The position numbers were made by a program, and so were the translations under genes. Below are positions 19,460 to 26,083 of a stretch of 31,258 nucleotides of DNA, in pieces. Source of the DNA: a virus (Duplodnaviria > Caudoviricetes); IMG/VR virus record IMGVR_UViG_3300031452_000016, positions 1 through 31,258 of that record; one strand, written 5' to 3'. Under the pieces are notes generated by a model. The model was not told where the DNA came from. It did no database searches and saw only the letters and a list, made by a program, of their open reading frames with translations. Numbering within the stretch: position 1 is the stretch's first letter; the number at the start of each line of letters is the position of its first letter.

Positions 19460-20629
19460 TCAGATGCCCTTGTAGTTGAACACCTGACGCAATGTGTGCA
19501 GCGGCCGGACGAGATCGACCTGATCGGCCATGACCTGCTGAATGTCCTTGTAGGAGGACGGGTGCTCGTCAAGTAGCTGCTCTGCCTTGCCGGACAACCA
19601 CTCACGATCACCCATCGCCTCGCGGAAGGACTCGACGGTCAGTTCCTGGCGTGCGCGCTTGCGGGACATGCGCCGGCCAGCACCGTGTGAGCAGGAGTTG
19701 TACGAGGCTGGGTTGCCGAGTCCTTCCACGATGTAGGAGCAGGTGCCCATCGACCCAGGGATGACGCCCAAGTCACCGACGCTGGCCTTGATGGCGCCTT
19801 TGCGGGTGATCCACATGTCGCGGTTGTGGTGGTGTTCCATCTGCGCGAAGTTGTGGTGGCAGTTGATCGTTCGCTTGACGACGCCGCGCCCTGCGACCTC
19901 AAACAGCGACCGCTCGGCGGCGTTCATCATCGCCTGGCGGGAGCCGAAAGCGTAGCGCTGCGCCCACAGCATGTCCGCGATGTAGTGCTCAAACTCCGGT
20001 GTGCCTTGCGCGAGGTAGGCGAGGTTTGGGTCGGGCAGGTCGATGAACCATCGCCGCATTAGGCCCTTGGCTTCCGTGACGGCCCGCTGAGCGAGCTGGT
20101 TGCCGATGCCACGGGACCCGGAGTGCAGGACAAGCCAAACGCGGTCGCTTTCGTCCAGACAGACCTCTACGAAGTGGTTGCCGGAGCCGAGGGTGCCGAA
20201 CTGAGCGGTGGTGGTCGCTTCCTGCTTCGCGGTGAGTTCGGTCGCTGGCATCCCTACCTGCTCGAACGCCGTGTACTCGTCGGGCTGTGACGGACCGGCG
20301 AACTGCTTCCCGACTCCGGCCGGGATGCGCTGCTCGATGAGCGGCATCAGGGAGTGCAGGCTGTCCGGTAGGTCGCTGGCGGTGAGGTCGGTTTCGGTTG
20401 CGATCATGCCGCAGCCGATATCCACCCCGATGGCGTAGGGGATGATCGCGCCGAGCGTCGGAATGACTGTCCCGATGGGCGGACCGAACCCGCTGTGCGC
20501 GTCTGGCATGAGCGCGACGTGTGACGGCACGCACGCAAGGGATGCCGCGATGGCCGCATCGTCAAGTGTCTTGTCCTCGACATTGCTGCCCCAAGAAAGC
20601 ACCTTTGGGCGGGGGGTCGTGATGGTCAT
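19460..20629 (-). CDS. rtcB: RtcB-family RNA 2',3'-cyclic-phosphate/5'-OH ligase
   Basis: MPDAH, GVDIGCG, GTLGSGNHF, HSGSRG, HHN, RKGA, PGSMG, SCSHGAGR and DEHPSSYK motifs all present; GGAGGA ribosome-binding site. Confidence 0.97.
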   Translation of the reverse strand: MTITTPRPKVLSWGSNVEDKTLDDAAIAASLACVPSHVALMPDAHSGFGPPIGTVIPTLGAIIPYAIGVDIGCGMIATETDLTASDLPDSLHSLMPLIEQRIPAGVGKQFAGPSQPDEYTAFEQVGMPATELTAKQEATTTAQFGTLGSGNHFVEVCLDESDRVWLVLHSGSRGIGNQLAQRAVTEAKGLMRRWFIDLPDPNLAYLAQGTPEFEHYIADMLWAQRYAFGSRQAMMNAAERSLFEVAGRGVVKRTINCHHNFAQMEHHHNRDMWITRKGAIKASVGDLGVIPGSMGTCSYIVEGLGNPASYNSCSHGAGRRMSRKRARQELTVESFREAMGDREWLSGKAEQLLDEHPSSYKDIQQVMADQVDLVRPLHTLRQVFNYKGI

Positions 20630-23410: not shown

Positions 23411-23619
23411 CAGCGGCCACCCGCCGGGTGCTTGTCGAGCAGCGTCTTCGTGAACAGCAGTATCGCCGCGTCCATCGGCAGACCGCCGCGGTTGTACTCC
23501 CACCAGTACCTGAGGAGCACGAGGGCTTCCCGCTGCTCCTCCAACGTCAGGTGCGAACGGTCGTCGTCGGTCATCGGCTCTCCTCCTGCTGCACAGCCCG
23601 CCGGCAGGGCGTAGGTCAC
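23410..23619 (-). CDS. Small hypothetical protein
   Basis: Coupled at both ends; alternative ATG at 23574 with AGGAG. Confidence 0.55.
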   Translation of the reverse strand: MTYALPAGCAAGGEPMTDDDRSHLTLEEQREALVLLRYWWEYNRGGLPMDAAILLFTKTLLDKHPAGGR

Positions 23620-23909
23620 GGGGTGGCCCTACGGCGCCGGTTGCGAGCAACGGCCTCGGCGCTCCACGCCGTGGTGCACGGGCGGCAGCGGCACCTCCAG
23701 TTGCTGTACGTGTTGGCCTCGCCGTGTGGCGCCAAGCTCGGGTCAGCAGCGAGCCGAGTCGCTCGGACGCTGCGCTCTCCCTGGATTCTTCGCGCGTTCG
23801 CAGCTTGGCAGTCAGGGCAGCGGCACCTGAGGTTGGTGTAGCCGTTCGCAGTCCCGTGCCTTGGGTCGCCGTAGGGCAACGGGTGCGGCCAGATGTACGA
23901 CGTGCTCAT
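23616..23909 (-). CDS. Protein with two HG-x4-Y-x3-RCRC-x2-C zinc-binding repeats
   Basis: HGTANGYTNLRCRCPDC and HGEANTYSNWRCRCRPC; AAGGA ribosome-binding site. Confidence 0.75.
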   Translation of the reverse strand: MSTSYIWPHPLPYGDPRHGTANGYTNLRCRCPDCQAANARRIQGERSVRATRLAADPSLAPHGEANTYSNWRCRCRPCTTAWSAEAVARNRRRRATP

Positions 23910-24130
23910 GGCGTTCCTTTCCTCAGTGCCTGGCGGATCCGGCCGGTGAGCAGGACCCGGCTGTGCCCCACATGCCAGTGCTCCGGGCCCTGCACGGGGC
24001 ATCTGTAGACCGACAGATCGCGGTGGTGGGTGTCCCGCTGGAGGTCGGTCATCGCGGCCACGGCGAGGTTGCGGGTGGGGTAGCGGCGTTTCTCCAGCCG
24101 CAGACACGGACCGGACAGGGCGGTGGTCAC
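23906..24130 (-). CDS. Small Zn-binding hypothetical protein (YRCP...HWHVGH)
   Basis: GTGA coupling with the methyltransferase stop. Confidence 0.65.
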   Translation of the reverse strand: MTTALSGPCLRLEKRRYPTRNLAVAAMTDLQRDTHHRDLSVYRCPVQGPEHWHVGHSRVLLTGRIRQALRKGTP

Positions 24131-25227
24131 GCGTGCGTCCAAATCAGCAGGCAGCAACCGAACGGTGGGCGCTCGTTAGGTCCGACGTCGAGCTGCCCGG
24201 CCTTGATGAACCGCATGCGACCGGGAAGGAACTCGACTCGTAGGCCGGATCCGGCTCGGTCGCGGTGCGGCTCGACCTGCTGCTGCCACCACTTCTGCTC
24301 GCAGCGGTTCGCAGGCAGGAGCATGACGATGCCGAGGGCGCGGTCTGCCTCGAGCCATGCCTTGCGAACCCACGGCTCGATTGAGCTGTATGGCGGGTTG
24401 CAAAAAACGGTCTCAGGCCGCAGCGAACATGCGATGCATCTCATACAGGAACTGCTCGATGACCAGTCGTCGTTCGGCTGGGACCCACTCAACGGGGAGA
24501 CGCGCTCCCTCCCGTCTATTGCAGGACTGACAAGCTGGGACGATGTTCCAAGGAACTGTGCCGGGACAATCGGTGGCGGCGAAGGGAATGTAGTGATCTT
24601 GCTCAAGGGCTCCGTCTGCGCCGCAGTAAGAGCAGCAACACCTCCAGAAGTCGCAGGCGCGCTGCCATGCTTCGGCGGACCACTGGTAGGGAAGTGATTC
24701 GCGCCGCTGACGCCGCCAGTTGTTATCCACCCGGCTGGCATCCCGCTTCCACTGACGTCCCTGCGGCGAGACTCGATACCGCTCTTTTTCTGCGATAAGT
24801 TTTGAGCGAAGTTGAGGGTCAGCTCGTCTTGCAGCTTGCCGCTCTCGAGAACGTCGTCGGTCGCATTCTCGGCACTGACTGTATCGGCCGTTTCGCTTCG
24901 CAGTGCGGGGAACGAACGAGCATCGGTCACGCCAGACTCGGCAATTGGTACATCGGATGAGTGACACGAGCATCGGCAATCCACTCCGTAGGTATTGATC
25001 CATCTTGGCCCCCACGACTGTCTCAGCCCGTCCGTCGTCCGGTCGAAGTAGCGGTGACACTTCGTGTTGTGCGCGGCAGCTGCCACGTCCAGGGTGAACG
25101 GGCCGAGGCGCTCGGAGAACTGCTCGAAGTGGAGCGGGTGTGTTGCGCGGTCGTCCACATCGTCTAGCGGTCCTGCAGGAAGGGTCTGCTGCGGATGGTT
25201 CTGCGCCTTGAAGCCGAGCAAGCTCAT
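24127..25227 (-). CDS. dam: Phage DNA N6-adenine methyltransferase (Dam/PF05869-like) with a 197-codon in-frame insertion
   Basis: FTLDVAA..HNTKC..YF..DGLRQSW before the insert; VFCNPPYS, VMLLPANR, WWQ, GRMRF and PPFG after it; ATGA-coupled start at 25227. Confidence 0.9.
   Translation of the reverse strand: MSLLGFKAQNHPQQTLPAGPLDDVDDRATHPLHFEQFSERLGPFTLDVAAAAHNTKCHRYFDRTTDGLRQSWGPRWINTYGVDCRCSCHSSDVPIAESGVTDARSFPALRSETADTVSAENATDDVLESGKLQDELTLNFAQNLSQKKSGIESRRRDVSGSGMPAGWITTGGVSGANHFPTSGPPKHGSAPATSGGVAALTAAQTEPLSKITTFPSPPPIVPAQFLGTSSQLVSPAIDGRERVSPLSGSQPNDDWSSSSSCMRCIACSLRPETVFCNPPYSSIEPWVRKAWLEADRALGIVMLLPANRCEQKWWQQQVEPHRDRAGSGLRVEFLPGRMRFIKAGQLDVGPNERPPFGCCLLIWTHA
24413..25003 (-). CDS. 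HNH endonuclease nested out of frame within the methyltransferase gene
   Basis: N-terminal CTNC...CREC zinc ribbon, then CSYC...EQDHYIP...WNIVPACQSCN HNH motif; start at 25003 or 24973. Confidence 0.9.
   Translation of the reverse strand: MDQYLRSGLPMLVSLIRCTNCRVWRDRCSFVPRTAKRNGRYSQCRECDRRRSRERQAARRADPQLRSKLIAEKERYRVSPQGRQWKRDASRVDNNWRRQRRESLPYQWSAEAWQRACDFWRCCCSYCGADGALEQDHYIPFAATDCPGTVPWNIVPACQSCNRREGARLPVEWVPAERRLVIEQFLYEMHRMFAAA
24418..25008 (-). mobile_element. 591-bp homing-endonuclease-like insertion element
   Basis: Removing it restores QSWGPETVFCNPPY; GGCC occurs at both junctions; lower GC than the flanks. Confidence 0.75.
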
Positions 25228-25655
25228 GCGGCTCCTTCGGTGGGTTGTGTGGCGCGACGCCGGATCTGGCGGGCGGCCTGGTAGGCGATCTCGGCAGTGG
25301 CGCACGGCTCGCACGCGGTCTCGCGGTGGCTTCGGTGCCGGTTGAAGGCGGCGTGCGACCCGCACGGCGCCAGTCCGCGAGAAACGCGCAGCAACGGCTC
25401 GTACGGCACTGGGGCGCGAGGAACCAACAGAAGTGATCCGAGGGGTGTCAGCTGGTCTGTCCAGGCCGGCAGGTCACCAGCGGTGCAACTGTCATTGACC
25501 ATCCCAGCGAGCAGCACCACAGCGGCCGGCAAGTCCAGCAGGTCCACTGCGGTCTTGACCTCGTGGACATCGCCACTGCGGACCGCCCCGATGAGTTCCA
25601 GGATGGTGGGGAGCGCCATCTCGACCCGGCGGGCACCCTGACGTGAGGGGGTCAT
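25224..25655 (-). CDS. Hypothetical protein with C-terminal PCG..RH...C..C zinc motif
   Basis: PCGSHAAFNRHRSHRETACEPC; coupled at both ends. Confidence 0.7.
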   Translation of the reverse strand: MTPSRQGARRVEMALPTILELIGAVRSGDVHEVKTAVDLLDLPAAVVLLAGMVNDSCTAGDLPAWTDQLTPLGSLLLVPRAPVPYEPLLRVSRGLAPCGSHAAFNRHRSHRETACEPCATAEIAYQAARQIRRRATQPTEGAA

Positions 25656-26083
25656 GACGCGCGCCGCCGCTTCGCTTTCGCCTGTCGTGCTTGCCGGCTG
25701 GCTTCAACCATCGCAGCCCTACACAGCGGGCACGGCGTCTCGTGCTGGCTCCGGTGGCGCGTGTAGCCAGCAAAGGTGCCGCACGGCTGTAGCGGCCGAG
25801 GTGTGGGCCGTTCGGCGGCTACCCGAGGGGCACCTACCGGCGCCGGCTTGTCCCCGTCCCTGAACAGCCACCCGCCCCAAATCCCTAGCGGACGCTGGTG
25901 AATGCCAGGTCCGGGGTTGGCGTGCCACTGCTGGGCGTAGGTGAGGCACTCGGCTTGGACGGGGCAGCTGTGGCAGACCTGGGCGGCGGCCTGCTGGTCG
26001 TGGTGGTCCTCAGACAGCCACAGGTTCGCGGGCCGGCCGGCGCAGGCAGCCTGGTCCGCCCACGCACCGAGCGCGGCGGTCAT
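25652..26083 (-). CDS. whiB: WhiB-family transcriptional regulator with C-terminal zinc motif
   Basis: W..QAAC...VCHSCPVQAECL...GIWGG; WhiB is an actinobacterial marker. Confidence 0.9.
   Translation of the reverse strand: MTAALGAWADQAACAGRPANLWLSEDHHDQQAAAQVCHSCPVQAECLTYAQQWHANPGPGIHQRPLGIWGGWLFRDGDKPAPVGAPRVAAERPTPRPLQPCGTFAGYTRHRSQHETPCPLCRAAMVEASRQARQAKAKRRRAS

Follow-up and report, generated by a model that had tools for sequence, protein, structure and literature searches.

We propose that a methyltransferase gene in the virus record IMGVR_UViG_3300031452_000016 is interrupted by a homing element that is translated rather than spliced out. We analyzed positions 1 to 31,258 of this record (the window). 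The gene, on the minus strand (24127..25227), encodes a 366-amino-acid (aa) N6-adenine methyltransferase of the Dam family (PF05869). The element, also given in minus-strand terms (24403..25010, 608 nucleotides (nt)), contains an open reading frame (ORF) for an HNH endonuclease in another frame; the methylase frame is open across it; it sits next to the catalytic motif; and it is patchily spread among Dam alleles. We think that it is almost certainly a homing element and that the methylase frame is very likely read through. We also lean toward the view that two Cys/His motifs at the ends of the insert, CxCxCH and CxxCxxC, form a zinc clasp, and toward the view, to about the same degree, that the full-length methylase is active. 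We consider the explanation as a whole (a 608-nt HNH homing element, read through and not spliced, with the ends of its loop closed by zinc) to be probable.

The nearest empty allele (L001) is 89% identical to the window's host protein. Nucleotide identity to L001 runs from 25228 to 25011 (86%) and then from 24402 to 24138 (89%), and an empty-allele contig from run X5 breaks at the same 24402. The 608 nt in between are not homologous to empty alleles and replace 17 nt, for a net gain of 591 nt, which is a multiple of three. The sequence at the site in empty alleles is SWAGERVWCNPPY. The original prediction had placed the junctions at 24418 and 25008, and these positions have moved, but its net size of 591 nt is right, and excising 591 nt does yield a protein of 169 aa with the usual motif spacing. 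Aligning Dam alleles with and without the insert, as it had suggested, defined the empty site given here. The distance from motif I to NPP is 33-35 aa in all 38 of the empty loci listed and 231 aa in the window.

The 5' host flank (minus strand, 25011..25227; codons 1-72) includes a motif I-like LDVAA at 25078-25092. The 3' host flank (minus strand, 24127..24402) starts at C276, which is followed at once by catalytic motif IV, NPPY (N277-Y280; minus strand, 24388..24399), so the insertion site adjoins this motif on its upstream side. From 25227 to 24127 the methylase ORF has no internal stops, as originally claimed, and the remaining two frames of the same span have 11 and 2. The Pfam Dam match to the 366-aa protein comes in two pieces (E = 2e-18), and the protein has what is expected of PF05869: a motif I-like segment and NPPY inside an S-adenosylmethionine-methyltransferase fold.

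The insert is not an assembly artifact, because a second assembly (L045) is 100% identical to the window over 5,588 nt (the contig L044 is that of the window itself) and pieces of the insert are present at 99% identity or above in two runs from other studies, X3 and X4. We had considered run X3, in which 62% of words matched, as an empty allele, and rejected it because it contains these fragments. On the 5' side, the host frame reads R-W-I-N (minus strand, 24994..25005), which is likely a decayed duplicate of the host strand RVWCN and would represent a duplication of the target motif. This copy is clearer in P0009 (ERVWC), P0247 (AVWVN), and L136 (SNFVN). We also note a 14-nt direct repeat (12/14 matching) near both junctions (24407-24420 and 25017-25030, 610 nt apart); it is out of codon register and may be due to chance.

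The hidden HNH ORF (minus strand, 24413..25003; 196 aa) is in frame +2 relative to the methylase and fills the insert. It matches HNH from Pfam (E = 1.7e-5, above the cut-off) and PHROG 1035, "endonuclease VII" (E = 1.5e-20), so the shifted frame does hold a complete zinc-finger and HNH nuclease. An N-terminal CxxC..CxxC finger (C18/C21/C44/C47) is followed by a helical linker and by the HNH core (C124-N162; minus strand, 24518..24634), which comprises CxxC, D136-H137, N153, and CxxC-N162. C124, C127, D136, H137, N153, C158, and C161 are invariant in all four aligned relatives. We take D136-H137, N153, and the other core residues to be catalytic, from what is generally known of HNH nucleases. 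The start of translation is more likely to be M11 (ATG at 24973) or V13 (GTG at 24967) than the start of the ORF: the residue aligned with V13 is Met in relatives P0001 and P0003, and a candidate internal ribosome-binding site, GGAG, is at 24984-24987 (site and likely starts: minus strand, 24965..24987). The nuclease had been expected to begin 5 nt inside one junction and to end with a TGA overlapping the other. The later starts are likelier, and the stop codon sits inside the element. No sigma-70 promoter or terminator was found within 24100-25400.

Similar inserts are present in other Dam proteins. Among the matches listed in a full-protein search (the best 120 of 287), there were four full-length insert-bearing relatives (P0007-P0010, 40-47% identity). 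A profile built from the five close alleles (the window and P0007-P0010), for which the best 150 of 8,763 matches were listed, added P0181, P0196, P0206, P0208, P0238, P0247, P0250, P0252, and P0256. As most of these alleles are known as proteins, we judged the presence of an HNH by whether the codons are compatible with one. Frame +2 permits an HNH core (strict motif) in 13 of 18 long-insert proteins, versus 0 of 250 control Dam proteins. P0252 and P0196 permit the core under a relaxed motif, and the remaining three inserts fit another motif in frame +1. We also scanned the DNA of species genomes with a pattern that ignores stop codons. Two of the four matches are real: L136, from a Lentimicrobium metagenome-assembled genome (MAG), encodes a Dam of 410 aa and, in frame +2, an HNH of 238 aa, and its host frame is open, and L138, from a Rhizobiaceae MAG, is an allele cut at its 5' end in which the hidden HNH is confirmed in DNA. 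The other two (L135 and L137) are chance matches. In total, there are at least 15 full-length alleles with the insert, including the window (14 others). In annotation, insert-bearing proteins are labeled just as Dam or as "hypothetical protein".

Viral contigs gave no further insert-bearing allele when scanned with the single HNH or with an HNH alignment, which found two distant loci; HNH-plus-NPPY patterns had no matches there, and all 10 matches to a Cys-triad pattern in these contigs were due to chance. Among the matches listed from a metagenome scan (47 of 64 parts), there were just the window's own sequence and distant HNHs.

The element's distribution on the tree of its hosts fits homing. 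With the insert columns masked (124 rows), the window's host is 62-65% identical to the nearest insert-bearing hosts, far below its identity to L001. In a tree of 37 sequences (32 empty alleles from viruses or phages plus the five close alleles that bear the insert; the distant proteins were left out), a single clade for the five insert alleles was rejected by the approximately unbiased (AU) test (p-AU = 3.3e-5).

The host frame of the insert had been described as low-complexity sequence. This is true of the middle, but the ends have conserved motifs: CxCxCH on the N-terminal side (C84, C86, C88, and H89; minus strand, 24961..24978) and CxxCxxC on the C-terminal side (C261, C264, and C267; minus strand, 24427..24447). 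Both are invariant in the five close alleles. Of the 15 alleles, the first motif is present in 10, [C/H]xxCxxC in 9 (one with His for Cys), and both in 9; P0196 has a different Cys/His pair at a nearby site. Across 12 same-site proteins, Cys makes up 33/264 (12.5%) and 32/264 (12.1%) of the terminal 22 residues at the two ends, a few of these being the host's own, and 24/2,105 (1.1%) of the middle. Where the HNH has Cys, the host frame has Ala or Val; therefore, the clasp cysteines do not mirror the zinc ligands of the nuclease. The triad is 10-12 codons from NPP in the eight same-site alleles and 30-35 codons from the HNH core.

An AlphaFold model of the 366-aa protein, built with 12 sequences, suggests that both flanks form one methyltransferase fold around the loop, because residues 23-366 superimpose on N6-adenine methylases (PCIF1, Z = 10.7; M.TaqI, Z = 8.9; E. 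coli Dam, Z = 8.7). The predicted local distance difference test (pLDDT) score is 84 for residues 71-80, 79 for 81-90, and 73 for 261-270, and it is below 50 for 92-260, so that the insert's ends are modeled with confidence and its middle as disordered; the residue contacts of the cysteines are not visible in the output. Foldseek found no match in PDB at E ≤ 0.001. A predicted complex of the two insert ends with zinc had a score of 0.16 (mark 0.32), and we did not use it as evidence.

Several observations weigh against our explanation, and we consider them together with the alternatives. The insert might be a plain read-through insert of the type known from mycobacteriophage ShiLan, with cysteines that are by-products of the nuclease's codons. 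A host-frame Cys needs an HNH codon ending in TG (Leu, Met, or Val) and then a pyrimidine, and such codons would occur at the start codon and in the last helix. Met codons of the HNH dictate three of the seven positions in the window (C86, C264, and C267), and C88 coincides with the likely start, so it may reflect only a start codon that is obliged to avoid TGA. All seven ligands arise in 0.6% of synonymous recodings of the HNH. The clasp is absent from three of the 15 alleles (L136, P0208, and P0238) and partial in P0250 and P0256; given the alleles without it, it is not required for the element. Also, a second model, of P0252, has pLDDT of just 47-63 at both motifs. However, neither motif is present in the shifted frame of any of 74 distinct free HNH loci. 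C84 and C86 precede the likely start and so are free of any constraint from the HNH. The HNH residues under the motifs vary, with no conservation of those under the triad, whose position follows the host junction instead. In P0247, a ligand changed from Cys to His. The conservation of Cys and His at both ends thus seems not to be explained by the nuclease frame, although it is partly forced by Met codons in any single sequence. We view the by-product alternative as unlikely. The clasp is well supported as conservation, and its proposed function is what the conservation suggests to us.

We had at first taken P0252 to show that the insertion site can differ, and now consider this only possible, as its model puts the 3' degenerate copy of the motif in the core; the alignment used favors that placement.

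Alternatively, the insert might inactivate a dispensable methylase, with a host frame that is open by chance or just to avoid polarity on downstream genes. In run X5, a contig of a related phage runs straight from one neighbor to the other (skipping from 24126 to 25224) and is missing the whole methylase gene, so this gene may be under weak selection. Among changes in the window's 3' flank that could be polarized, there were 7 synonymous versus 5 nonsynonymous codons. The catalytic motif is NSPY in P0206, and the second motif is degenerate in P0252. To ask if the open frame is selected, we recoded the HNH synonymously, with its protein sequence fixed, and scored the host frame for openness. 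In the window, it stays open in 7.5-15% of recodings (p = 0.075-0.15), so selection is not demonstrable from the window alone. In L136, whose insert is AT-rich (32% GC), it stays open in 0.7%, 0.16%, or 0.02% of recodings (p = 0.007, 0.002, or 0.0002), which is well beyond chance. The stop avoidance that the original prediction proposed to check by such shuffling is therefore seen in L136 (p ≤ 0.007) and not in the window by itself. For comparison, the shifted frame is open in 7 of 317 overlapping windows from ordinary genes of this phage, and none of 80 further loci with HNH relatives has it fully open (L053 has one stop).

Several features of the host protein speak against inactivation. All but one of the 15 alleles keep NPPY or NPPF, the host-frame motifs are conserved across hosts that are about 25-47% identical, and the model folds as one methylase. 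The proportion of nonsynonymous differences (pN) is far below that of synonymous differences (pS) in the 5' flank (pN = 0.042, pS = 0.46) and in the 3' flank (pN ≤ 0.06, pS = 0.285); by this comparison, the host flanks are under purifying selection. We think that inactivation is quite improbable.

The way that we found the alleles also limits our explanation. Protein searches find open-frame alleles alone, so they are not evidence as to openness, and our profile was built on five proteins with the clasp, so the frequencies of openness and of the clasp are inflated. The scan that ignores stops had just two true matches out of four. Finally, the failure of the insert alleles to form a single clade is as compatible with repeated loss as with repeated gain.

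As to splicing, an Rfam search of 23500-26000 at E ≤ 5 had a single irrelevant miRNA match and no intron, the insert's RNA folds no better than shuffled sequences (z = 0.12), and the element has no terminal inverted repeat. Pfam finds Dam alone in the protein, with no intein domain, and the residue after N277 is Pro. The original prediction had already noted the absence of intein termini and the near lack of noncoding room for an intron core. Removal by an unrecognized intron, ribosomal bypass, or Cys-driven self-excision of the protein, which would suit an insert that directly precedes a catalytic motif and for which a 4-nt GGCC repeat permits an in-frame deletion, is the least probable alternative, both for these reasons and because removal from the RNA would make the open frame and the protein-level conservation of the ends unnecessary.

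We therefore return to a homing element that does not depend on splicing and spares its host by overprinting, as the original prediction had it; the patchy spread, the catalytic-motif target, the open frame in L136, the lack of an intron or intein, the purifying selection, and the one-fold model all agree with this. We suggest that internal initiation at M11 or V13 makes the HNH, which would cut or nick empty alleles near the NPPY codons and be copied in by repair; the altered codons around the site would render the occupied allele immune. Ribosomes in the methylase frame would read about 200 extra codons and make a disordered loop of about 170 aa. The seven Cys/His ligands, with one or two zinc ions, would join the ends of this loop beside strand β4, and the closed loop would let both halves fold as one enzyme. 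A broader proposal, which we find possible but somewhat short of probable, is that the seven-ligand zinc clasp is portable. Its sequence would reside in the nuclease gene's leader and tail, would have arisen de novo in the overprinted frame, and would have moved with the nuclease into Dam methylases that are just 25-47% alike, as a third route, beside RNA splicing and protein splicing, by which a homing endonuclease can reside in a functional enzyme.

The clasp could also have been captured from a host, because an N6_N4 methylase (L081) has an overprinted HNH within what is, in short alleles, a native loop with CxxCxxC at its end. In this second case (L081:1024-2832, with the HNH at 2075-2746), the HNH is in frame +1 of the methylase, and the loop ends in CPGCxxC (CxxCxxC) in the short alleles P0276-P0281. 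P0273-P0275 have similar long inserts, and an overprinted HNH is also compatible with the codons of P0274 and P0275 from this family.

We noticed other inserts in Dam proteins. P0011, P0013, P0016, P0017, P0019, and others have short CxxCxGxG...CxxCxGxG (DnaJ-like) inserts at the same site, and further Cys-rich inserts are found slightly upstream of it. The short inserts resemble zinc fingers and are in keeping with a clasp in this loop region. In P0196, an insert with the same type of hidden HNH precedes the DGL motif; one of its ends has CxxC and the other has CxH. P0180, P0186, and P0232 have 115-135-aa inserts upstream of the usual site, and their codons permit a CVNPxHL-type nuclease motif in frame +1, as do those of 5/250 controls. 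Separately, the free HNH relative at L053:2109-3203 has a run of 364 open codons in its shifted frame, and no host gene is apparent there; repetitive high-GC genes can leave a shifted frame open by chance.

The rest of the window includes genes for terminase, portal, capsid, tape measure, WhiB, and RtcB. The gene for the RNA ligase RtcB (minus strand, 19460-20629; Pfam E = 2e-109) is directly upstream of the terminase region. The host of this phage is likely an actinobacterium, since relatives of the methylase are in Gordonia and Mycobacterium phages. Among PF05869 phage methylases, gp58 of Gordonia phage Jambalaya belongs to the same family and is 74% identical over the flanks, but it has no insert.

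The closest known system is the ShiLan domain, a hidden out-of-frame HNH in gp65 of mycobacteriophage ShiLan, with a similar insert in gp60 of Pacc40 (Arsenault, Gosselin, Gogarten 2025, PMC11855218; Gosselin 2023, PMC9957025). The original prediction had named this as a similar case in actinophage methylases, and the portions of these papers available to us agree. As described there, ShiLan and Pacc40 share with the window an insert of about 200 codons in a phage methylase that is nearly filled by an HNH in the third frame, with no host-frame stop, no intron or intein, a patchy spread, a duplicated target motif, and a predicted loop. The host is PF05869 Dam in the window versus PF01555 N6_N4 in ShiLan, and the nuclease is PF01844 HNH versus PF13392 HNH_3. 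We found no homology to ShiLan gp65 or to its HNH_3 nuclease (best BLASTP E-values of 1.0 and 3.0), and Pacc40 is not among the matches listed in tblastn searches of phages. Over 22 residues, one end of the ShiLan insert has a single Cys and the other has none, whereas the ends in the window's family are Cys-rich. The reported ShiLan copies are near-identical, while the window's family is diverged and reaches MAGs from Bacteroidota and Rhizobiaceae.

The same portions mention zinc for the nuclease's own fingers alone and leave open how the methylase survives 200 unspliced extra residues. The window's family offers a concrete answer: seven conserved ligands whose mutation need not alter the nuclease frame. 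We found no description of a zinc clasp of this kind, and no relevant papers but the two on ShiLan, in the literature that we searched, whose scope did not extend to the ShiLan supplements, the GitHub alignments, or subscription journals. If our explanation is correct, then an overlapping frame gave rise to a function de novo, selfish genes have a new device for sparing their hosts, and the clasp might be a tool for placing large loops in enzymes. Annotation misses overprinted nucleases such as these.

Two other systems are looser analogues than ShiLan. Some inteins have an endonuclease VII-like homing endonuclease in frame 3 (Gosselin et al., bioRxiv 10.1101/2025.01.02.630785). From the part of that preprint available to us, the nuclease is overprinted in frame 3 of a loop that is open in the host frame, as in the window, but that loop lies inside the intein and is spliced out, whereas the window's insert has no splicing domain. 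In phage Aeh1, an HNH gene, mobE, splits nrdA (Crona et al. 2011, PMC3045599). In the available text, NrdA is two polypeptides with interaction tails derived from mobE, whereas the window has one open frame and a predicted metal clasp. The hidden-nuclease layout was thus already published (2025), and what is new here is the host family, the nuclease family, and the proposed seven-ligand clasp.
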